From: Haloarculaceae archaeon
GTDB taxonomy: Archaea > Halobacteriota > Halobacteria > Halobacteriales > Haloarculaceae
Assembly (NCBI GenBank): GCA_042217765.1
Contig: JBDGSB010000084.1
Span: 1 to 42,912 of the forward strand
Length of the DNA stretch: 42,912 bases
Direction: 5' to 3'
Below are positions 3,320-16,730 of the stretch, piece after piece. How positions within the stretch are numbered: position 1 is the first letter of the stretch; each line of letters starts with the position of its first letter. The translations under genes and the position numbers were made by a program. The notes under the pieces were generated by a model. It was not told where the DNA came from, did not search any database, and saw only the letters and a program-made list of their open reading frames with translations.

Positions 3320-4456
3320 ATGGTCCCCGCCCTGTCCGACGCCCAACTGCGAACCCTGCTAGAGTGGTCGCCCGGCGTCATTTTCGTCATCGACGGCGAC
3401 GGGACGTTGCGATACGTCACTCCCTCCTCGAAGCATCTCCTCGGGTGCGATCCCGGCGACCTCTGTGGCAGCACCCTCGACGAGTACGTCCATCCCGACG
3501 ACCGGGACGCGGTCGAGGCGGCCGTCGCCGACTTCGACGGGGAGGCGACCCACCCCGACGTCGACGTTCGCGTCCGGGACGGCGACGACGCCTGGACGTG
3601 GCTCGAACTGGCCTCGATCCGCCCGTCCGGTCCGTCCCGCAACGGCGTCGTCCTGGTCACGCGTCCCGCCGCCGAGCGGAAAGCCCACGAGCGGACGATC
3701 GAACGCCTCTCGGTGGTCAACCGCGTCCTCCGACACGACCTCCGGAACGACGTCCACGTCGTCCTGAACTGGCTCGACGGCCTCGCGAGCGAACTGGCCG
3801 ACGAGGCCGACGAGACGCCACTGGATCGGATTCGAAACGCCGCCCGCCACATGGTCGCACTCACCGAGGAGGCCCGCGACTACGAGGAGACCGTCCTCAC
3901 CGACGAGGAGACGGGAGCGCCCGGTCGGCTGGCACCGGTCGTCGAGCGCGTCGTCGAGCGGCGGCGCGAACTGTACCCCGAGGCCACCGTCGCCGTCGAG
4001 GAGCCACCCGCGGTGACCGTCGCGGTCCACGACGTGCTCGACAGCGTCTTTCGGAACCTGCTGAACAACGCCGTCCAGCACAACGACCGCGAGCATCCGG
4101 CCGTCGCGGTGACCTTCGAAGAGACCGACGAGAGCGTCCTCGTCAGAGTCGCAGACGACGGTCCGGGCATCTCCGACGAGCGGAAACGGGCCCTCGTTCC
4201 CGACGACCGGCACGGTATCGACGGACCCGGTGTCGACGGGACCGGCGGTCCGAGCGGAACCGGCGTCGACACCGCAGAAACGGGCGTCGGCCTCACCATC
4301 GTCACCCAGGTCGTCGACGCGGTCGGCGGCGACGTCCGGATCGAGGACAAGGCACCCGCGGACCCGCCACGGACCGACGACGAGTCCCGCGGGACGGTCT
4401 TCGTCGTCGAGTTACCGACCGCGGGCGGCGACTACGTCGACCGTCTCATCGGCTAA
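3320..4456 (+). CDS. PAS-domain sensor histidine kinase
   Basis: 378 aa. An N-terminal PAS domain (GVIFVIDGDGTLRYVTPSS...), an H-box (RVLRHDLRNDVHVV), an N-box (LLNNAVQHN) and a G-box (VADDGPGISD...GVGLTIV). Confidence 0.85.
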   Translation: MVPALSDAQLRTLLEWSPGVIFVIDGDGTLRYVTPSSKHLLGCDPGDLCGSTLDEYVHPDDRDAVEAAVADFDGEATHPDVDVRVRDGDDAWTWLELASIRPSGPSRNGVVLVTRPAAERKAHERTIERLSVVNRVLRHDLRNDVHVVLNWLDGLASELADEADETPLDRIRNAARHMVALTEEARDYEETVLTDEETGAPGRLAPVVERVVERRRELYPEATVAVEEPPAVTVAVHDVLDSVFRNLLNNAVQHNDREHPAVAVTFEETDESVLVRVADDGPGISDERKRALVPDDRHGIDGPGVDGTGGPSGTGVDTAETGVGLTIVTQVVDAVGGDVRIEDKAPADPPRTDDESRGTVFVVELPTAGGDYVDRLIG

Positions 4457-4467
4457 CGGTCCGGTCG

Positions 4468-4668
4468 CTAGAAGTCCGGTCCGCGCTCGCCCGGATCGCC
4501 GTGGGCGACGATCATGTACGCGACGCTTCCGACGGCCACCGCCAGCGCCACTCCACCGACGAGATAGTTCAGCCCGGTGGTCGGGAACGGCCGCACTTGC
4601 AGGACGAGCAGACCCACGACGAGCCCGACTGCGGTCAGCGCGTACGGGAGCACTCGTGTCTCTCTCAC
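4468..4668 (-). CDS. small two-helix membrane protein
   Basis: 66 aa with two hydrophobic helices. Its GTG start overlaps the stop of the upstream HEAT-like gene (GTGA), so it is the last gene of that operon. Confidence 0.45.
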   Translation of the reverse strand: MRETRVLPYALTAVGLVVGLLVLQVRPFPTTGLNYLVGGVALAVAVGSVAYMIVAHGDPGERGPDF

Positions 4669-5420
4669 TGTCGGCCGTACAGTCGCTCGACTCTGTCGGC
4701 GACGTCGCGGACGCGTTCCTTGCGGTCAGCGTCGAGGTCGCCGTCGGTCGGGACGACCTCGAGCTGGTCGACCAGTGCGTCGAGGTCTTCGCGGACCTCT
4801 CGATAGCTGTCGCTTGCTACCTGCTCGTCGGCCACGAAGTCCCGGAGTTCGGCCGCCCGCCGCCGGCAGGCCGCGGGCGATTCGTCGGCCGCGGCTGCGA
4901 GGTGTTCGGCCAGCGAGACGCCGAGGTAGTCCCCGTCGCCAGTCTCGTTCGAACCACCGGTTCCGTCGGCGTCGCTGGCGAGGTCCGACAGCCGTCGTCG
5001 GGCGCGCTCGCGTTCGTCCTCGCGGGTGGCCTCCTCGGCGATCGACTCGAGGGTTTCCTCGATGCGTTCGCGCTCGTTCGGGGCCTCCCGGTGGAGTCGC
5101 CGGAGCACGTCGATGGCGCTCTCGCGCTCGCCGGAGAACGTCGCGTCGGTCGCCACCGCCGCGAACGTCCCGACGGCCACCTCGGCCGCGGTCGAGGGGT
5201 CGGCCTCGAAACACGACAGGAGCTTCTCGCGTGCCAGTTCCCGTTCGGACCGATTGGACGACTCCAGGACGACCTCCCGGAACGTCTCTAGAATCTCCCG
5301 GCGACCCTCGGCGTCGACGTCCTCGTAGACGGCCGCCAGTTCCTCGATGGCCGACTCCCGGTCCCTGGAGTAGGGGGATTCGAGCGCGGTCTCGCGGTGC
5401 GTGCGAACGACGTCGGTCAT
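4665..5420 (-). CDS. acidic HEAT/PBS-lyase-like repeat protein
   Basis: 251 aa. Repeated ~30-aa units (ERESAIEELAAV..., ERESAIDVLRRL..., ERERARRRLSDL...). Its ATG at 5420..5418 overlaps the TGA of the upstream gene (ATGA), indicating translational coupling. Confidence 0.6.
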   Translation of the reverse strand: MTDVVRTHRETALESPYSRDRESAIEELAAVYEDVDAEGRREILETFREVVLESSNRSERELAREKLLSCFEADPSTAAEVAVGTFAAVATDATFSGERESAIDVLRRLHREAPNERERIEETLESIAEEATREDERERARRRLSDLASDADGTGGSNETGDGDYLGVSLAEHLAAAADESPAACRRRAAELRDFVADEQVASDSYREVREDLDALVDQLEVVPTDGDLDADRKERVRDVADRVERLYGRQ

Positions 5421-7243
5421 AGCTCGGTGCCACACTCCATGCAGAAGGCGTCGTCCGGCTGGACGTCAGACCCGCACTCCGGACAGGCGGCCGTCGGTCC
5501 GTCGGTGCTGTCGGCGCCTGCGTTGTCGTCGCCACCGCTTCCGCCACCACCGTCACCGCCACCGTTTCCGCCACCACCGTCACCGCCGCCCTGGACGATG
5601 GTTGTGTCCCCGGAGTCGCTCGCGCCCGAATCGGAGACGATGACGTTGTCTGAGGTGTCCTCGGCGGCGGCCTTGCCGGTGTCGCCCATGTTGTCCATCG
5701 CGGACTCGGTGGTCTCTTGCATCCGGTCCATGGAGTCCTCGACGACGTCTTTCATCTCCTCGCGGAACTCCTTTTGGTCCTCGACGCGCTGGCGCTCCTT
5801 CTCGGCCTTGTTGGCCTCCTGGCGTGCCTTCGCCAGTTCGTCGCTCTCGCGGGCCCCCAGCGAGTCCAGTTGGTCGGCGTCTAAGTCTTCGGCGGCCTCC
5901 ATCTTCGCGATCTCGTCGATGGCGTCGCTGGTCTCGTCCATGCTCGCCAGCGTCGAGGCGTCGACGTCGTCGCGGGCGTCGAGACGTTCCTTCTCGACCT
6001 CGGCTTCGTGTTCCTCCTTGTGCATTTCCATTTCCTGCTCGCGTTCCTCCTTGTCGAGTTTCTGCTCGTCCTTCTTGCGCTTGAGGTCCACCAGATCCTC
6101 CATCTCGTTCATGTCCTGTTCGTGTTCGAGGTCCCGGCGCTGGACTTCGCCCTCCTTGCGCGTCGTGGCCGTCTCCTGTTCGTGCTCGACGTCCTCGCGC
6201 TCGGCCCGGTGCTCGTGGCGACGCTCCATGTCGTCGATTTCGTGATCCTGCTCGACGGCCTGCTTCTCGACCTCGTGATCGGCCGCCTGTTCGGCGGACT
6301 CGACGCGGGTCTGTTCCCGGGTCTCGTGGATCTCGTGTTCGCTCTCGCGCTCGCGGGCCTGCTTGTCGAGTTCCAGCTCCTCGTCTTTCAGCTCCTCCGT
6401 CGCACGGCGCTTTTCCAGTTGCGTCCGCTCCTCGCGGACGTCCTGGCGGTCGTCGTCGAAAGTAAGCGACCGCAACGCGACCAGCGCGAGTCCATACCGT
6501 TCGAGCGTCGACCGAAGCTGGTGTTCGACGTCCTGTTGCAGGTCGCGTTTCAGCGTCCGGGTGCCATATAGGTCGTCTAGCCGCTGGTCGGCCACCGTCG
6601 CCTGGATCTCGTCGGCGACGGCGTCGCCGAGCACCTCGTCGAAGGTGGCGGCGGTGACGACGTCCCGGTCGGCCATCAGGCCCGTGAACAGCAACTCGGG
6701 GTCGTCGATGGCGACGACGAACTCCACGTCGGCCCCGACGAGGACGTCGCCGGCCGTCCGGAGGTCGTCTAACCCCATCGTGATGGGCGTGTCGCCAGTC
6801 TCGACGAGGATGGCACTGTACTCACGCTTGCGCCGGAGGTCCGTCAGCCGCTGGCCGAGCGTATCGAGCGTGTGTTTGCCGGGACCGATCTCGGCGGTCA
6901 CCTCGCCGTGTTCGAGCAACAGTGCGCGGTTGCCCGCCTCGATTTCGATCTCCTGTTTGCCCCGCAAGCGATCGAGTAGCCCGTCGCCCTGGAGGTCGGA
7001 CCCGCCGATGCGGCGGGCGAACTCGTGGGACTGCAGGCGGAGCGCGTCGCCGGCGTCGGCCCCGGACTCCGCCTGGCGCTTGCTCGTGTCGCGGAGGTTC
7101 TCGCCACAGCCCGGACAGAACTTCGCGTCGGCTTCGACCGACCGGCCGCAGTTGGGACACGACGATCCGACGGACGCGCCGCAGTTGGCGCAGAACTCGG
7201 CGTCGGCCGGCAGGCTCTCGCCGCACTCCGGACAGCTAGGCAC
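5417..7243 (-). CDS. zinc-ribbon / SPFH (band-7, flotillin-like) / long coiled-coil protein with a Gly-rich linker and a C-terminal zinc ribbon. GTG start.
   Basis: 608 aa. Two N-terminal CxxC-x-CxxC ribbons (CPECG..CANCG, CPNCG..CPGCG). Residues ~100-260 have an SPFH-like beta/alpha pattern (ILVETGDTPITMGLDDLRTAGDVLVGADVEFVVAIDDPELLF...). An E/K/R/D-rich predicted coiled coil of ~250 aa follows, then GGGDGGGGNGGGDGGGGSGG, then CPECGSDVQPDDAFCMECG. Confidence 0.7.
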   Translation of the reverse strand: MPSCPECGESLPADAEFCANCGASVGSSCPNCGRSVEADAKFCPGCGENLRDTSKRQAESGADAGDALRLQSHEFARRIGGSDLQGDGLLDRLRGKQEIEIEAGNRALLLEHGEVTAEIGPGKHTLDTLGQRLTDLRRKREYSAILVETGDTPITMGLDDLRTAGDVLVGADVEFVVAIDDPELLFTGLMADRDVVTAATFDEVLGDAVADEIQATVADQRLDDLYGTRTLKRDLQQDVEHQLRSTLERYGLALVALRSLTFDDDRQDVREERTQLEKRRATEELKDEELELDKQARERESEHEIHETREQTRVESAEQAADHEVEKQAVEQDHEIDDMERRHEHRAEREDVEHEQETATTRKEGEVQRRDLEHEQDMNEMEDLVDLKRKKDEQKLDKEEREQEMEMHKEEHEAEVEKERLDARDDVDASTLASMDETSDAIDEIAKMEAAEDLDADQLDSLGARESDELAKARQEANKAEKERQRVEDQKEFREEMKDVVEDSMDRMQETTESAMDNMGDTGKAAAEDTSDNVIVSDSGASDSGDTTIVQGGGDGGGGNGGGDGGGGSGGDDNAGADSTDGPTAACPECGSDVQPDDAFCMECGTEL

Positions 7244-7255
7244 GCTCGTTCACCC

Positions 7256-7316
7256 CAGTTCGGTCGGGCCGGCAGTTCGTTCGGCCGGGCCAGCAGTTCG
7301 TTCGGTCGGGCCGGCA
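7256..7316. repeat. tandem ~21-bp repeat x3 (AGTTCGTTCGGYCGGGCCRGC) immediately upstream of the GTG start of the SPFH gene
   Basis: Direct reading: cagttcggtcgggccggc / agttcgttcggccgggccagc / agttcgttcggtcgggccggc. Confidence 0.7.
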
Positions 7317-7374: not shown

Positions 7375-7896
7375 TCATTTCAGTCCGTGCAGGTAGTCCT
7401 GGCGCCGGTCGAAGGCACGCTCGACGTCCTCGAACAGGGAGCGACACGCGTGCAGTTCGTCGGTTATCGGCGCGCCGGTGCGAGCGGCCGCCCGCACTTT
7501 CTCGGCCCGCGTCACCAGGTCTTCGCCGTCTTCGACGAGCGTCGCGTCGTGTTCGACGACGGCGACGAGGTCGCTCTCCTCGTCGGCGCTGAACTCCCGC
7601 AGGCCGCCACCGTCGCCGCCAGCGTTCTCGACCCGGCGCGCGAACGTCTCGACGTCGTCGGTCAGGTCGCCGATTGCGGCCACGTCGTCGCGTCTGTCGT
7701 CGTCGTAGCAGGCGTCGCTGGCGTCTTTCAGGACGCCCCTGGCCGCACCGAGGTCGCGTTCGAGTTTCTCCCTGAGCGTTCGGTCGGTCTCGCTCCAGGC
7801 GTCCCGGCTCCGGTAGTCGTAGCCGGGAATCGTCCGGCGCAAGACGGCACTGTTGGCCGAGAGCGCGTCGTCGTCGATGTCGTCGAGCAGTCCCAT
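7375..7896 (-). CDS. acidic hypothetical protein
   Basis: 173 aa starting at the internal ATG (MGLLDDIDDD...). The longer ORF back to 7956 would overlap the upstream AAA gene. It lies 47 bp downstream of the Vps4-like gene on the same strand. Confidence 0.55.
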   Translation of the reverse strand: MGLLDDIDDDALSANSAVLRRTIPGYDYRSRDAWSETDRTLREKLERDLGAARGVLKDASDACYDDDRRDDVAAIGDLTDDVETFARRVENAGGDGGGLREFSADEESDLVAVVEHDATLVEDGEDLVTRAEKVRAAARTGAPITDELHACRSLFEDVERAFDRRQDYLHGLK

Positions 7897-9128: not shown

Positions 9129-9794
9129 TCAGATACTGAGTTCGGAGTCGTCGAGTTCGTCGAGGTCGACCTCGCCGCCGAGGTCCGCCTCGACCTGGAC
9201 GTCCGCGTCGATGTCGACCTGTTCCTCGCTGATCTCGCTGGCGGCCATCTCCTCCATGATCTGCTCTTCCTCGCCGGTGTCCATCTCGAGTTCGTCCTCC
9301 ATGATGGGGATGTCGAGCGCGTTCTGGATCTCCTGGAGGTCCTCCATCTCGACGCCGAAGGTCGCCATCCGCTCCATGATCTGCCCCTGGATCTCCTGGG
9401 CGTCGGCGTCGTTCATCACCTGATCGAGCGCAAGGTCCTGTCCCTGGTCGTCCTGCAGTTCCATGATCTCGCGCATGCCCTGGATGGAGAGGACGGTCCC
9501 CAGTTTGACCGACGCGGCGCGGTACTTCTTCTTTTTGATGGCGTACTTTTTCTTCTCGAATTTGGCCTTCTGGGCGTACTTCTTGCGCTGCATCTCCGAC
9601 GCCTCCGCGCCCTCCCGGAGCAGTTCCTTGTACTGACGGCCGTGTTTGTCCATTTCCCCTTCGAGTTTCTTCAGTTCGTGTTCGAGTTTGATGACGTCCT
9701 TCCGGAGCGCCTTGTCGCTGTAGACGCTCTCGTCGAGCAGCGACTCGCCCGTTCCGCCGAATCTGTCCGTGACCCAATCGCGTAGTTCGACCAT
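9129..9794 (-). CDS. ESCRT-III/Snf7-like (PspA/Vipp1 superfamily) coiled-coil protein
   Basis: 221 aa. Basic K-rich helical N-terminal half (KKYAQKAKFEKKKYAIKKKKYRAASVKLGTVLSIQGMREIME). A Snf7-like alpha-4 signature (LDQVMNDADAQEIQGQIMERMA). A very acidic C-terminal tail ending DLDELDDSELSI that resembles an MIM. Its stop lies 3 nt from the start of the MIT-AAA gene. Confidence 0.6.
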   Translation of the reverse strand: MVELRDWVTDRFGGTGESLLDESVYSDKALRKDVIKLEHELKKLEGEMDKHGRQYKELLREGAEASEMQRKKYAQKAKFEKKKYAIKKKKYRAASVKLGTVLSIQGMREIMELQDDQGQDLALDQVMNDADAQEIQGQIMERMATFGVEMEDLQEIQNALDIPIMEDELEMDTGEEEQIMEEMAASEISEEQVDIDADVQVEADLGGEVDLDELDDSELSI

Positions 9795-9817
9795 GTTTGT
9801 ATCCTCGTGTATCGTAA

Positions 9818-9827
9818 CTTAATTATT
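9818..9827 (-). promoter_or_regulatory. TATA-like box (AATAATTAAG on the minus strand) 24-33 nt upstream of the Snf7-like ATG. Implies a leaderless transcript.
   Basis: The only AT-rich stretch in an otherwise GC-rich intergenic region. Spacing is typical of haloarchaeal promoters. Confidence 0.4.
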
Positions 9828-10272
9828 GGCCTGTGTGACATACCGTCGGGTTGCGTTCGTTCGCGTGCCTGCGTCTCCGGTTTGGCGACCAGTACCGCGG
9901 CGGCGACTCCGGCCAGGAAGCCGGCTCCCAGCACGAGGTTCGCCACGAACGTGCCGAACAACCACGGACGTTCGATCGCCATTCCGAATCAGCCACACGC
10001 ACATATTGCCACACCAACTACTTAATATTTTCTCATATATGGTTCTACAGAGTTTCCTCCGATATGGAGATGCCGGATCGTGCGGAGATTCGGAATTTCG
10101 CCGGCATATACGGCCATACACACTGCGAACCGACCGTCTGTCCCGAATATCGGTCGAGGATCGTCGACTCGCCCGTGGAGAGACGTCCGCAAGTCTCCGT
10201 TTTGGAAAAAGGATTTATTCGTGGAGATACAACCGTCGCTCACATGCGTCATCAGATCGGGAGGAATCGACG

Positions 10273-10794: not shown

Positions 10795-12815
10795 CCGACT
10801 GCACCGACCGATTCCGGGAGATACGACGCGAATCGAACCGGGTCCTCGACGAGGACCTCGAAGCACTCGAGCGCCGGCCCGAACGCGACCGCATCCGGCA
10901 GTACAACGACCTGCGACGGCTCGAAGAGCGGTTTCGCTCGGAGTTTCTGGCGGACTGTCCGGACTTTCTGACCGACAGCGAGCGCGACCGCGTGCGCGGA
11001 GAGATACGGTTGGGTCGCCTGCTGTTAGCGGCCAGTTTCTACGCCGATGGTGACCTCCCGGCCGCGATGGCCGGCGACTGGAGCGACGTCGAACTCCAGG
11101 CCGTCGTCGACTTCGATCGGTACCGGGCGTTCGACTCGCTGTCGGACGAACAGATCGAGCGCCGCATCCGCCGGATGGACGGGGAAGTCTACGAACTCGT
11201 TGCCGAGTACACGTCGACGCAACTGGCGACCGTCGAGACCCTGCTCGACCATCCCGACGTCCAGCAGGACGTGCTAGAGCGGTTGCTGGCCCGCTACGAG
11301 GACCGCCGCGAGCGCATCCGCGAGGGCTTTTTCACCTACGTCGAGACCCACGGCCTCGAACACACGGTCGCCGCCATCGAGGATGCCGTGCGCGCGGTCG
11401 CGCAGTCGTCGTCGACGCGGGCGTCGGTTCGCGCCGAGGTGGACGCGACGCTCTCGAAGAGCACCAGCGCCGGAGCGGACGCCGAACGGGCCCACGAGGA
11501 CGCTATCGAGCGGCTCACGGCGGGCGTCGAACGGGTCGAACGCCTCCAGTCGCGGCTCGAAGATCGCATGGACGAACTCGAACGCGCCCGCGAGGCCGCG
11601 ACCGAGGCCGACGGGTCGGTCGCCGGGGAGACGGTCGAACTGGTCGAGGGGGAACTGGCCGAACTGCGAGCCGAACGCGACCGACTCGACGTCGCCGGCG
11701 AGCAACTCGACCGCGAGCGGAGCCGCGTCGCCGCCGCCGCCGACCGTCTCGACCGACGGCGGGAGGCGGTCTCCGGGCGGACCGACGCTGACGGGGGAAT
11801 CGACGGCACGAACGTCGTTCCCGCGCCGGTCGCGCGGCTGTACGAACTCGACTACCTGGGACGGTTCGACATCGCGATGGAGGAGGTCCCGCAGGTACAC
11901 ACGCCGGACGGCGACGTCCGGATTCCCGACGGGTACTGGAACGGGCCCGGAGCCAGTTTCCGCCAGAGCGAGCGACCGCGGGTGGCCTCGCTGCTGGCGG
12001 ACGCATGCGGCGAGACCGCGGACGATGGCGGCGAGACCGCGGACGATGGCGGCGAGACCGCGGACGATGGCGGCGAGGGCGCGGACGCACGCGGCGAGAA
12101 CGCGCCGGACGCACGGTCCGACGCCAGCGCGGACGCCGGCACCGTTCCCTCGCCGACCGTCGGGAGGCGGGCGGTCGACGCCGACCCCGAACGTGACCCC
12201 GACCGCTATCCCCAGGCCGGCCGCTCGCGCTACGAGATCAGGGAGAGCCGCCACCTGGGACTGCACAGTACCACGACGATGGCCGTCGAGGCTGTCGTCC
12301 ACGCCGACCTCGAGTCGTACGTCACCCGCGGATTCGACGACGCGCCGGCCGACCTCGACGCCTTCCTCGGGTACGTCAACGACGCTGTGGCACGGGCCGA
12401 GCGACGCGGCCACGCCTACCTGTTGGCGGTCGCCTCGCCGACGGGCTGGACCGACCGCGTGCGCGACCACGTCGCAGAGTCGCGAACCCGCGTCGGCAGC
12501 GACGTCGCCCTCGTCCTCGTCGACCTCCGGTCGGGCGAGGTCGTCCACGACGAGTCGGACCCACTGGCCGACGAGAACGTCGCGCTGTTCGAGCCGCCGA
12601 CCGACGACGAGCGGATCGCGGAGGTGGTCGAGACAGTCCGCCGGGAGTACGTCGACGACGTCGGCACCGACAGCGTCCGCGTCGAGCGGGTGGCCGACGA
12701 CCACGGCTACCAGCCACACCTCGTGACCGAGGCGTTTCACGAACTCGAAGCCGACGGCGCGGGCGAGTTGCTCTACGTCGACGACCTCGGGCTGTGCCTG
12801 GAGTGTGGTCTCTGA
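10791..12815 (+). CDS. large coiled-coil hypothetical protein with a GETADDG x3 repeat and a C-terminal CxxC
   Basis: 675 aa. The N-terminal ~330 aa are predicted helical/coiled coil (ELERAREAATEADG...LAELRAERDRLDVAGEQLDRERSRVAAAADRLDRRREAV). An in-frame 21-bp x3 DNA repeat lies at 12009-12071. The C-terminus ends ...LYVDDLGLCLECGL. No Walker motif. Confidence 0.7.
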   Translation: MTDCTDRFREIRRESNRVLDEDLEALERRPERDRIRQYNDLRRLEERFRSEFLADCPDFLTDSERDRVRGEIRLGRLLLAASFYADGDLPAAMAGDWSDVELQAVVDFDRYRAFDSLSDEQIERRIRRMDGEVYELVAEYTSTQLATVETLLDHPDVQQDVLERLLARYEDRRERIREGFFTYVETHGLEHTVAAIEDAVRAVAQSSSTRASVRAEVDATLSKSTSAGADAERAHEDAIERLTAGVERVERLQSRLEDRMDELERAREAATEADGSVAGETVELVEGELAELRAERDRLDVAGEQLDRERSRVAAAADRLDRRREAVSGRTDADGGIDGTNVVPAPVARLYELDYLGRFDIAMEEVPQVHTPDGDVRIPDGYWNGPGASFRQSERPRVASLLADACGETADDGGETADDGGETADDGGEGADARGENAPDARSDASADAGTVPSPTVGRRAVDADPERDPDRYPQAGRSRYEIRESRHLGLHSTTTMAVEAVVHADLESYVTRGFDDAPADLDAFLGYVNDAVARAERRGHAYLLAVASPTGWTDRVRDHVAESRTRVGSDVALVLVDLRSGEVVHDESDPLADENVALFEPPTDDERIAEVVETVRREYVDDVGTDSVRVERVADDHGYQPHLVTEAFHELEADGAGELLYVDDLGLCLECGL

Positions 12816-14982: not shown

Positions 14983-15642
14983 ATGAGCGAGGACGACGCG
15001 ACCAGCGGGGACGACGCGACCAGCGAGAACGACGCGCCGGTGTCGCCGCTCACCGCACCGTTCGTGTGGTACGTCGAGACGTCCCAGACGGCCGCGGAGA
15101 CGTCGCGGACGGCCCTCGAACGGTCGCTCGAAACGCAGCAAGCAGCCGTCGACGGGTGGGCCTCCACGTTCGCCCCGCAGGCAGACGAGCAGCCAACCGA
15201 AGCGACCCCGAGTCAGGAGATGGCGTGGCTGTACGATATCTGGTCGGAGACGCTCCAGAACGCGCTCGTCCACCTCGACGACGCGGTCGACGAGGAGGGG
15301 ATCGATCTCGACTCGCTGCAGTTGATCTGGCTGCACGCGCTGGACGACGCGATCACCGACGTCGGAAAGCGACCGACGTTCGGTGCGACGATGACCGAGT
15401 CGGTCGAGAGAGCGTTGACGGCACAGTACTGGGGCGACCAACTCCGTCGGAGTGTGCTCGGAAGCGTCGACGTCCCGACTGATCGAGACATCGAGGCGGT
15501 CGGGAAACGACTCCTCGACCTGGAGTACCGTCAGAAGTCGGTCGAGGACAAACTGGACGCGGTGCTCGCCGCAGTCGGGGCAGACTCGGACACGGACCCC
15601 GAACGGACGGTCGGATCGGAGCCGGCTGGTGGTGCAGAGTGA
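14983..15642 (+). CDS. phaE: PHA synthase subunit PhaE (haloarchaeal class III)
   Basis: 219 aa, acidic. Its stop overlaps the GTG start of phaC (GTGA). The C-terminal [18 protein letters not shown] block resembles haloarchaeal PhaE. Confidence 0.8.
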
Positions 15643-16730
15643 CGCGACTTCCGAACCCAGTGACGGCGTCGATCGACGTCCAGCAACAGCTAGTCGAGGA
15701 CGGTGCCGAACTCGAAGAGCGGGCGGTGGAGTTGCCCGAGCGAGTTACCGAGATGACGAGCGTCGAGGTCGGGCAGACGCCACACGAGGTGGTCTACGAG
15801 GAGAACAAACTCGACTTGCTCCACTACGAGCCGCTCGTCGAGGACGAGGACAGACGGGACGTGGCGCTGTTGTTGGTCTACGCGCTCATCAATCGCCCGT
15901 ACATCCTCGACCTCCAGCCCGACAAGAGCGTCGTCCGGCGCTTTCTCGAAGCCGGGTTCGACGTCTACATGATCCAGTGGAACGAGCCTTCCCGGCTCGA
16001 CCGCCACCTCACGCTCGACCACTACGTGAACGTCTACGTCGACGACTGCGTCGACGTCGTCCGCGAACGGTCCGGCGTGGACGCGATCAACGTCCTCGGC
16101 TACTGCATGGGTGGCACGATGAGCGTCATGTACACCGCCCTCTACCCCGAGAAGGTGCGGAACCTGGCGCTGCTGGCGACCGGGCTGTACTTCGACGACT
16201 CCGGAGGCGTCCTGGAGCAATGGGGCGAGGAGTTCGACCCCGAGACGCTGACGCGGGCGTACGGCAACGTCCCCGAGGAATTCCTCGAATTCGGTTTCCG
16301 GGACATGAATCCGATAAACAACTACGTTACCAAATACGTCCAGCTCTATCGGCGATTCGACGACGAGGACTTCGTCGAGAACTTCGCGCGGATGGAGCGC
16401 TGGCTCAGCGAGGGCGTCGACGTCGCCGGCGACGCCTACGTGCAGTTTCTCGAAGACATCTACCAGGACAACAGGCTCTACGAGAACGACCTCTCGCTCG
16501 GCGAGCACGACGTCGACGTCGAGAACCTCGATGTGCCCGTCCTGCTCATCTGCGGGGAGTACGACAACCTCATCCCGCCGACCGCGAGCGAACCGTTCCT
16601 CGACGTGATTCCGAGCGAAGACACGGAAGTGAAGACGTTCTCTGCGGGCCACGTCGGCCTCGCCGTCTCCGACGAAGCACACGCGACCCTCTGGCCTAGC
16701 GTCGGCGAGTGGTTCGCAGCCAGGTCGTAG
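15639..16730 (+). CDS. phaC: PHA synthase catalytic subunit PhaC (class III)
   Basis: 363 aa. Lipase box GYCMGG. Long near-identities to haloarchaeal PhaC ([37 protein letters not shown]..., [32 protein letters not shown]...). Confidence 0.9.

Follow-up and report, generated by a model that had tools for sequence, protein, structure and literature searches.

A three-gene operon of an archaeon of the Haloarculaceae (assembly GCA_042217765.1) encodes a 608-residue protein with zinc ribbons at both ends and a predicted SPFH (band-7) domain, to be referred to as ZnSPFH, followed by a 251-residue HEAT-like protein and a 66-residue predicted membrane protein. [quoted passage not shown] We judge it fairly probable, with considerable room for doubt, that ZnSPFH, together with the HEAT-like protein, makes up a membrane-platform module accessory to the haloarchaeal ESCRT-type system, which comprises ESCRT-III-like, Vps4-like, and arCOG08177/arCOG09748-type proteins, and that this module recruits or positions ESCRT-III. 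Apart from the crenarchaeal Cdv system, little is known of how prokaryotic ESCRT-III polymers are targeted to a membrane patch. ZnSPFH is a concrete and conserved candidate for this function, in which, apparently, an SPFH scaffold lost its anchor and gained zinc ribbons at both ends.

Domain organization of ZnSPFH and its HEAT-like partner

The three open reading frames (ORFs) of the operon are on the minus strand, at the positions given by an earlier analysis of the same DNA (the sequence-only reading), and the translational coupling that it described can be read directly from the DNA. The stop codon of ZnSPFH overlaps the ATG of the HEAT-like gene (ATGA, positions 5417-5420, junction ...GAGCTATGACC), and the stop codon of the latter overlaps the GTG start of the 66-aa ORF (GTGA, positions 4665-4668, junction ...CAGTGAGAG). 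The GC contents at the third and second codon positions, 0.82-0.86 and 0.41-0.47, respectively, carry the haloarchaeal coding signature in all three ORFs. ZnSPFH and the HEAT-like ORF have about 50 full-length homologues each, which shows that they are genuine genes rather than chance reading frames. The existing annotation of the operon has one zinc-ribbon protein and two hypothetical proteins.

ZnSPFH contains, in this order, two N-terminal zinc ribbons, the SPFH domain, a charged helical region of about 260 residues, a C-terminal β motif, a Gly/Asp-rich linker, and a third zinc ribbon (Table 1). The three ribbons and the linker are as the sequence-only reading had them. The cysteines of the N-terminal ribbons are invariant or nearly so in an alignment of 27 family members. 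A model of the monomer was built with AlphaFold2 (AF2) on this alignment, with a mean predicted local distance difference test score (pLDDT) of 69. A search of the Protein Data Bank (PDB) with this model, using Foldseek, gave top 50 matches that all have the SPFH fold, including the major vault protein as well as prohibitin (E value of 2e-9), HflK/C, erlin, stomatin, and flotillin; the E values of the latter five are between 2e-9 and 1e-5. The alignment with flotillin spans 395-470 columns, and those of the flotillin, HflK/C, and prohibitin set span 270-470. Moreover, Pfam Band_7 (PF01145) is detected in 23 of the 27 sequences of the alignment with E values of 0.01 or lower (best 3.9e-13). The proposal of an SPFH/band-7-like domain is upheld by these fold matches and by Band_7 in the family, and on the model and the family alignment ZnSPFH is assigned an SPFH domain. 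The sequence profile of the family matches zinc ribbons in the PDB, and nothing else.

There is no transmembrane (TM) segment in ZnSPFH. No 19-residue window reaches a Kyte-Doolittle value of 1.6, and the maximum, 1.31, is located inside the SPFH domain. The conserved motif at residues 529-553 is predicted to be disordered in the monomer.

The helical region had been described as a heptad-rich coiled coil of about 250 residues. Long charged helices are indeed predicted for residues 265-528, but the heptad signal is significant in the last of them alone. The 3.5-residue hydrophobic periodicity has a shuffle p value of 0.014 in helix 468-528, compared to 0.33 in helix 265-348 and 0.84 in helix 367-425. 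A heptad coiled coil was rejected for the latter two helices, where strongly hydrophobic residues account for only 13-20% of the sequence. The region is 31-41% acidic and 18-22% basic. Residues His306, His323, His354, Arg369, Arg370, Gln376, Asp377 and others are invariant among the 27 sequences, and these charged and histidine positions would fit the packing of helices in the wall of an SPFH cage better than a free single helix. Six histidines in the charged helices (His306, His323, His345, His354, His374, and His412) are invariant or near-invariant and are found in contexts of the E-H-E type, and it is conceivable that they mediate a metal- or pH-dependent packing of these helices. In the homologues P0024, P0037, and P0041, the charged helices have extra insertions of H/D/E/R-rich repeats.

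The 251-residue partner has 51 homologues of about 250 residues, all unannotated and on the same contigs as homologues of ZnSPFH. A profile of 10 orthologues, compared with the PDB, matches the designed helical repeat DHR14 (8.4e-13) and, over residues 20-195, the HEAT repeats of the PP2A A-subunit (1.7e-5 to 1e-3). The HEAT-like nature proposed for this acidic protein agrees with these matches, and its description as a HEAT-like α-solenoid is justified on the profile evidence. No Pfam domain reaches threshold in the family; HEAT_2 is seen in 3 of 24 members, with a best E value of 0.019. Kinship with adaptins was considered and rejected: Adaptin_N matches weakly in two orthologues, and in merely one of the 24 family members (E value of 0.05).

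Linkage to ESCRT-type genes

The gene for a 221-aa ESCRT-III-like protein is 1.9 kb upstream of the ZnSPFH gene, on the same strand and directly upstream of the gene for a Vps4-like ATPase. The sequence-only reading placed the operon 130 bp downstream of this ESCRT-III/Vps4-like module. The strand is the same, but the gap, of 131 bp, separates ZnSPFH from the gene for p173, a helical protein of 173 residues, and p173 is located between ZnSPFH and the Vps4-like gene.

Makarova et al. 2024 (PMC10936438) list ERH10379.1, the homologue of the 221-aa protein given in Table 1, as a member of the ESCRT-III/Snf7 family arCOG07402. The AF2 model of the 221-aa protein (predicted template modeling score of 0.66) has a helical hairpin (residues 27-63 and 67-117), short helices, and a disordered acidic tail. 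Its family has 181 matches, compared to 52 full-length ones for the ZnSPFH family. The ATPase matches the NCBIfam CdvC model (1.7e-47), ranked below PAN, FtsH, and Cdc48, and shares 59.6% identity with a 402-aa AAA protein of Halapricum desulfuricans (locus L010). In the tree of Makarova et al., WP_229124354 of a sister H. desulfuricans strain is listed as Vps4 (PMC10936438). The ZnSPFH of H. desulfuricans, WP_229124356.1, falls between this Vps4 and the FHA/CdvA-like WP_229124358 of the same study, and this order of accessions identifies WP_229124354 as the counterpart of the ATPase in the window.

Two genes divergent from the ESCRT-III-like gene encode proteins of 173 and 672 residues, which agree in order and size with the pairs of arCOG08177 and arCOG09748 in Table S2 (PMC10936438) and are homologous to the corresponding pair of the H. 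desulfuricans locus. The same study lists WP_229124351.1 of H. desulfuricans as arCOG09748. A profile of the divergent 173-aa protein found nothing informative in the PDB. The window resembles the 'Main' and 'Halo_FHA' loci in having an ESCRT-III gene of the arCOG07402 type followed by a Vps4-like gene, with a divergent pair that is probably of the arCOG08177/arCOG09748 type. In comparison with Halo_FHA, it is without the arCOG13166 FHA/zinc-ribbon protein (the namesake of the clade), the kinases, and the phosphatases. A hidden Markov model (HMM) of the 214-262-aa zinc-ribbon proteins that relatives have at the arCOG13166 position finds no equivalent in the window, cross-matches of zinc ribbons aside. 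A zinc-ribbon protein is present at this position in L002-L006, L010, and L045. Makarova et al. describe arCOG13166 as an FHA domain fused to a CdvA-like region, and Pfam sees only the zinc ribbon in it. Judged by its gene content, the window holds an ESCRT locus of the 'Main'/'Halo_FHA' type without FHA protein, kinases, and phosphatases. The loci of relatives also have phosphatases of the PP2C class, a number of Ser/Thr kinases, and a HEAT_2 protein of 413 residues (L010:12640-20162, L002:1-3600, L005:1-7200, L045:12999-16681), all of which are missing from the window.

The haloarchaeal loci compared are seven genome loci, three contigs with exact protein matches (L008-L010, with L008 and L009 near-identical), and the locus of Natronolimnobius baerhuensis (L045). 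ZnSPFH and the HEAT-like gene are present together in every one of them, and in all loci long enough to judge the pair is within about 10 kb of ESCRT-III-like and AAA homologues. The gene order of the window is maintained in L001-L003, L008-L010, and L045. In L004, the HEAT-like gene is shifted about 4.8 kb downstream; in L005, it is shifted as well and the ESCRT-III/AAA module is inverted; and in L006 the order is rearranged. Over nine distinct related loci, the HEAT-like gene adjoins ZnSPFH in seven and is at most 5 kb away in the other two. It appears from these loci to be a new, uncharacterized component that strictly co-occurs with ZnSPFH in haloarchaea. Because the linkage survives rearrangement, a functional connection of the pair with the ESCRT genes is indicated, which gives substance to the joint locus suggested by the sequence-only reading. 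The ZnSPFH/HEAT-like cassette is absent from two otherwise similar loci, L046 and L047 (one of Halonotius aquaticus and one from a metagenome), and by this comparison it is accessory to the ESCRT core.

The 66-aa protein is the sole predicted membrane protein in the eight-gene locus of the window. By hydropathy it has TM-like segments at residues 4-22 and 32-50, which together with its coding-type GC content agrees with the two-helix membrane protein described earlier. The expected synteny, on the other hand, was not found, with no homologue at the equivalent place in nine related loci (tblastn and HMM searches), and the gene appears to be lineage-specific. The relatives have other small membrane proteins. 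A 2-TM anchor forms the N-terminal part of the p173 homologues of 254-262 residues (the p254 family) in L010 and L002, and is a separate gene of 81-93 aa in L001 and L003. The comparison of the 66-aa protein with this anchor is weak (hhalign probability of 18%, P value of 1.4e-3); the protein may be a diverged and relocated 2-TM anchor. For p173 itself there is no Pfam match, and its profile found nothing informative in the PDB. In addition, relatives have a gene for a 92-94-aa 3-TM protein upstream of the ESCRT-III-like gene (for example L010:6916-7194). A remnant of this gene is found in the window, with its first TM segment apparently fused to the C-terminal 'KPE' end, its stop codon lost, and atypical GC contents by codon position. 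It is probably a decayed gene, to judge from these features.

The family extends well beyond haloarchaea. An exhaustive search with the ZnSPFH profile, over sequences clustered at 50% identity, gave 217 clusters having E values of 1e-30 or lower and 1,348 having 1e-10 or lower, and many of them align end to end. The distant members that were sampled are not acidic, and they keep the plan of a double zinc ribbon, a W.R.P..FA.R segment, the SPFH domain, long helices, 'EQILAM', 'TVV.GGGG', and a C-terminal zinc ribbon. The 'TVV.GGGG' segment is the equivalent of the haloarchaeal C-terminal motif. Some distant members are missing one or both ribbon ends; P0286 and P0235 are without the N-terminal ribbons. 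One relative is two genes away from an FtsW/PBP2 peptidoglycan-synthesis gene (L030:10-2085 and L030:4219-5847), and another, MCK4413830.1 (on a 122-kb contig), is annotated from a metagenome-assembled genome of Candidatus Eisenbacteria. The family is therefore also bacterial.

A scan of metagenomes, with a search pattern derived from a five-sequence alignment, gave 34 non-halophile loci with relatives 24-30% identical to ZnSPFH. An AAA protein with an MIT-like N terminus and one or two ESCRT-III-like genes are present in 13 of the 34, and in 12 of the 15 for which 4 kb or more of sequence is available upstream. Of the two ESCRT-III-like families in these loci, one is recognized with the haloarchaeal HMM (7e-5) and the second with Pfam Snf7 (3.8e-5). 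The genes are arranged in at least five ways. Directly upstream of ZnSPFH, these operons have a TM-bearing paralogue of the SPFH type; they further encode a protein with a zinc ribbon, a PQQ propeller, and a TPR/clathrin-like solenoid, a vWA-TM-zinc-ribbon protein, several Ser/Thr kinases, and sometimes a CHAT protease. No homologue of the 251-aa HEAT-like protein was found in them. It is a speculative suggestion, and to us a rather doubtful one, that the ZnSPFH class comprises a large set of uncurated, anchorless, flotillin-like cage proteins, ancient and recurrent partners of Vps4-type ATPases and Snf7-like ESCRT-III in archaea and bacteria, in a prokaryotic flotillin-ESCRT apparatus for budding or sorting. 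If it were correct, the TM-bearing paralogue and ZnSPFH could form a heteromeric cage, like flotillin-1/2 or HflK/C, and Vps4/Snf7 systems with a defined membrane platform would extend into bacteria.

In L020-L023, L025, L028, L031, and L032 (for example L022:20-16316), the order of genes is a small winged-helix-like protein, the ESCRT-III-like protein, the AAA protein with the MIT-like N terminus, the propeller and solenoid protein of about 900 residues, a 446-aa HExxH protein, the TM-bearing SPFH paralogue, ZnSPFH, the vWA-TM-zinc-ribbon protein, and Ser/Thr kinases with WD40 or FGE-sulfatase fusions. As predicted from its domains, the ~900-aa protein has a protocoatomer-like layout. A CHAT (caspase-like) protease with a zinc ribbon (L043:5820-7883 and L034:1610-2932) is found directly upstream of ZnSPFH relatives, and the one in L034 has weak BLAST similarity (5e-6 over 206 residues) to the 672-aa arCOG09748-like protein of the window. 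No tRNA genes were found in the metagenome loci, and the flanking genes are taxonomically informative for L030 alone.

Proposed role of the module and its alternatives

The PspA-YdjGHI system of Bacillus subtilis is encoded by a σW envelope-stress operon (PMC8581546). YdjI consists of an SPFH domain, a region of low complexity, and a C-terminal zinc ribbon, with no anchor (PMC8581546, PMC11237479). It depends on YdjG and YdjH, both membrane proteins, is required for the membrane foci of PspA, and affects membrane fluidity (PMC8581546). YdjG has two N-terminal zinc ribbons and a TM segment (PMC11237479). Both YdjI and ZnSPFH are anchorless SPFH proteins with a low-complexity linker and a C-terminal zinc ribbon, encoded with a gene of the ESCRT-III superfamily and with small membrane proteins, and a double zinc ribbon is present somewhere in each system. 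ZnSPFH differs in having the double ribbon, the SPFH domain, and the C-terminal ribbon in one chain, together with the ~260-residue helical region, so that it combines the domain vocabulary of YdjG and YdjI in a single polypeptide. YdjI belongs to Band_7_1 (PF13421), whereas the ZnSPFH family matches Band_7; for Band_7_1, ZnSPFH of the window has an E value of 0.065 (13.3 bits, for a cutoff of 24), and 5 of the 27 family members have E values of 0.01 or lower. Moreover, the partners here are a Snf7-like protein and a Vps4-like ATPase rather than PspA, a HEAT-like protein takes the place of YdjH (with a TPM domain), and the host is an archaeon.

An SPFH, coiled-coil, and zinc-ribbon protein, WP_013898576.1, is known from the 'Meth_adaptin' locus of Methanosalsum zhilinae and has been proposed as a membrane enclosure for ESCRT (PMC10936438). 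It shares with ZnSPFH these three elements and an archaeal Vps4/ESCRT-III neighborhood. Table S3 gives its SPFH domain as residues 1-212, from the first residue onward, so that the protein is apparently without the N-terminal double ribbon. The methanogen locus has adaptin-appendage, GOLD, and ProX proteins, and not arCOG08177/arCOG09748 or a HEAT-like partner.

The solved cage structures of flotillin, prohibitin, HflK/C, erlin, and stomatin share with ZnSPFH the SPFH fold, the long helices that follow it, and a short stretch near the C terminus that is conserved. In comparison, ZnSPFH has no N-terminal TM or hairpin anchor and has zinc ribbons at both ends, its helices 265-425 are extremely charged with no heptad signal, and in haloarchaea there is no paralogous partner subunit. 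The stomatin-NfeD pair resembles the operon in having an SPFH gene followed by that of a small membrane protein. However, the 66-aa protein is too short for the OB-fold of NfeD, has no significant Pfam match (NfeD included), and is not conserved with the SPFH gene.

The sequence-only reading did not recognize ZnSPFH as a described family. No curated family spans the whole protein, and to this extent the statement stands. However, existing annotations already name homologues as SPFH or zinc-ribbon proteins, their loci are listed as archaeal ESCRT systems (PMC10936438), and partners of this kind have been described, with SPFH, coiled coil, and zinc ribbon in the methanogen loci and with the related YdjI for PspA.

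Like other SPFH proteins, ZnSPFH would form a ring-shaped or cage-shaped assembly at the cytoplasmic side of the membrane, with the SPFH domains at the membrane, the charged helices as the wall, and the TTIVQGG-type motif closing the top. Because it has no anchor of its own, an external tether is expected. In relatives, this could be provided by the small membrane proteins, namely the 2-TM anchor that belongs to the p173/p254 family and the 3-TM 92-aa protein. In the window it may be the 66-aa protein, the zinc ribbons, or both. Zinc ribbons recur on many other proteins of ESCRT-type loci, which suggests that they may be shared docking modules. The platform would mark a patch of the membrane and recruit or position the ESCRT-III-like polymer, as YdjI does for PspA, and the Vps4-like ATPase would remodel this polymer. 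The HEAT-like protein would be a stoichiometric, fixed adaptor, as suggested by its translational coupling and strict co-occurrence. The output could be vesicle budding and protein sorting or the excision and repair of damaged membrane, and the sequence favors neither. Budding and sorting are favored for such systems by Makarova et al. (PMC10936438).

Several observations weigh against this proposal. ZnSPFH of the window has itself no Band_7 match, and no Pfam SPFH model reaches threshold. The 221-aa protein has no Pfam Snf7 or PspA match and no PDB profile match, and its fold matches are not discriminating. By its PDB matches, the ATPase is nearer to Cdc48/VAT D2 than to the solved Vps4 structures, and its match to an MIT domain is weak (E value of 0.67 for the Vps4-like MIT domain of S. 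solfataricus, 2v6y). The locus is without the anchors of its relatives, as the 3-TM gene is a remnant, p173 has no TM segment, and its sole membrane protein is unconserved. Finally, we infer the oligomerization of ZnSPFH, its membrane binding, and its contacts with ESCRT-III or the HEAT-like protein.

A membrane-stress module like that of Psp is an alternative that we consider unlikely. Here the SPFH assembly would sense or stabilize damaged or fluid membrane and ESCRT-III would seal or excise it, with no vesicle and no sorting of cargo; the recruitment step is the same as in the platform proposal, and the difference is in the physiological output. The only analogue studied experimentally, PspA-YdjGHI, is an envelope-stress operon (PMC8581546), and PspA-type proteins are regarded as repair-type ancestors of ESCRT-III. 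The partner here, though, is a Snf7-like protein of arCOG07402 with a Vps4-like ATPase and not PspA, nothing in the window links the locus to a stress regulon, and the Ser/Thr kinases, PP2C phosphatases, and FHA-type protein in the loci of relatives were read by Makarova et al. as the sorting of phosphoproteins (PMC10936438).

It is clearly improbable that ZnSPFH is an independent scaffold, of a microdomain or as a regulator of a protease or channel (like HflK/C-FtsH and stomatin-NfeD), that is merely located beside the ESCRT genes. Most of the characterized SPFH proteins do act without ESCRT, some ESCRT loci that are alike in other respects have no such cassette, and the 131-bp gap with its tandem repeat leaves room for a promoter of its own. 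Against this, the linkage to ESCRT-III-like and AAA genes is maintained through inversions and insertions in haloarchaea and recurs in the distant non-halophile loci, the locus in the window has no gene for NfeD, an FtsH-type protease, or a channel, and ZnSPFH itself is anchorless.

The least probable explanation, and a very improbable one, is a conflict or defense locus, a phage- or stress-triggered device for membrane disruption or abortive infection with ZnSPFH as its effector platform: the cassette is patchily distributed, the AAA protein matches the IetA models of PADLOC (1e-37), the distant loci are rich in Ser/Thr kinase, vWA, and CHAT protease domains that are common in conflict systems, and an integrase and a tRNA gene are 2.7-3.8 kb away, but the IetA match reflects generic AAA similarity (PAN, FtsH, and Cdc48 score higher), the other seven proteins of the locus have no match in PADLOC and no informative one in PHROGs (which gave only zinc ribbons and AAA), no relatives are found in phage, plasmid, or viral-contig (IMG/VR) collections, and the 3' end of the tRNA faces the integrase, which would put the integrated element on the side remote from the locus.

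The membrane-platform proposal builds on themes already known. An SPFH/ESCRT-III association has been described for Bacillus and for methanogen ESCRT loci, and homologous loci of H. desulfuricans and Halorhabdus amylolytica appear in the tables of Makarova et al. 2024 (PMC10936438). The text and searchable supplements of that study have no mention of an SPFH or HEAT-like component for haloarchaeal loci, and give the SPFH/coiled-coil/zinc-ribbon protein only for methanogens. In the text searched, we found no description of the anchorless family with double ribbon, SPFH domain, helices, and ribbon as a recurrent neighbor of Vps4/ESCRT-III in and outside haloarchaea, of its strictly co-occurring HEAT-like partner, or of the variable small membrane anchors.

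Contacts between flotillin and ESCRT are known in eukaryotes. ZnSPFH ties these to YdjI-PspA and to the SPFH protein of the methanogen ESCRT locus, and together they support the idea of an ancient partnership of SPFH proteins and ESCRT-III. Several cultivable haloarchaea carry the module (H. desulfuricans, H. amylolytica, N. baerhuensis, and Halosimplex marinum), which makes localization, deletion, and cryo-electron microscopy feasible.

Other features of the window

The features of the operon, of the ESCRT-type locus, and of their surroundings are listed in Table 1.

Table 1. Features of the window, with positions on the contig
Feature	Positions	Strand	Remarks
Tyrosine recombinase (integrase)	690-1778	minus	Pfam Phage_integrase 3e-16; directly beside tRNA-Leu
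tRNA-Leu gene	1830-1915	minus	3' end faces the integrase
66-aa ORF, two TM-like segments	4468-4668	minus	ABEI96_07010 in the annotation
HEAT-like gene, 251 aa from ATG	4665-5420	minus	start of the longest ORF is GTG at 5435
ZnSPFH gene, 608 aa	5417-7243	minus	ORF list; 52 full-length homologues at 40-58% identity
ZnSPFH, C-terminal zinc ribbon, residues 585-608 (C587, C590, C601, C604)	5420-5491	minus	third Zn_Ribbon_1 stretch; cysteines invariant; pLDDT 78-89
ZnSPFH, Gly/Asp-rich linker, residues 554-584	5492-5584	minus	52% Gly, 19% acidic; length varies among homologues
ZnSPFH, conserved C-terminal motif DTSDNVIVSD..GDTTIVQGG, residues 529-553	5585-5659	minus	near-invariant in the haloarchaeal family; pLDDT <50
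ZnSPFH, charged helical region, residues 265-528 (helices 265-348, 367-425, 468-528)	5660-6451	minus	DSSP on the AF2 model
ZnSPFH, predicted SPFH (band-7) domain, residues 98-263	6455-6952	minus	AF2 pLDDT 76-89; Foldseek
ZnSPFH, double zinc ribbon, residues 3-24 and 28-50 (C4, C7, C18, C21; C29, C32, C43, C46)	7094-7237	minus	Pfam Zn_Ribbon_1 8e-20, DZR 2.5e-17
21-bp tandem repeat, 2.8 copies	7258-7316		within the gap of 131 bp between p173 and ZnSPFH; Tandem Repeats Finder score 104
p173, 173-aa helical protein	7375-7896	minus	between Vps4-like and ZnSPFH; homologous to the C-terminal part of the 254-262-aa anchored proteins (tblastn, alignment)
Vps4-like ATPase, 393 aa	7944-9125	minus	single-domain classical AAA (Pfam AAA 6e-37), N-terminal helical region, acidic linker
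ESCRT-III-like protein, 221 aa	9129-9794	minus	64% identical to ERH10379.1
Remnant of 3-TM protein gene	9671-9982	minus	truncated; overlaps the ESCRT-III-like gene by 124 nt
Putative arCOG08177 protein, 173 aa	10273-10794	plus	size, order, homology; 60-67% identical at the same place in L002, L004, L005, L010
Probable arCOG09748 protein, 672 aa, C-terminal winged-helix type	10797-12815	plus	homologues in L001-L004, L006, L010; no Pfam domain

The 21-bp repeat upstream of ZnSPFH is GGCCCGRCCGAACGAACTGCY on the minus strand and fills much of the 131-bp gap. Its pattern is confined to this one site within the window (two matches in 0 of 100 shuffles), and it could be an operator or promoter-proximal element.

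On the downstream side of the operon, the orientation of the tRNA-Leu gene relative to the integrase indicates that the integrated element probably runs toward the start of the window, away from the ESCRT locus. At the other end, the ESCRT locus is taken to end at about position 12815, as a PhaC-type poly-hydroxyalkanoate synthase (Abhydrolase_1 and PhaC_N; 15639-16730, plus strand), which follows a 219-aa gene (14983-15642), and then further housekeeping genes, among them one for a P-type cation ATPase, are found beyond it.

A histidine kinase with PAS, HisKA, and HATPase_c domains (3320-4456, plus strand) is convergent on the end of the operon. A kinase with 26% identity is at the same relative position in H. 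amylolytica (L002), either by coincidence or as a conserved neighbor.

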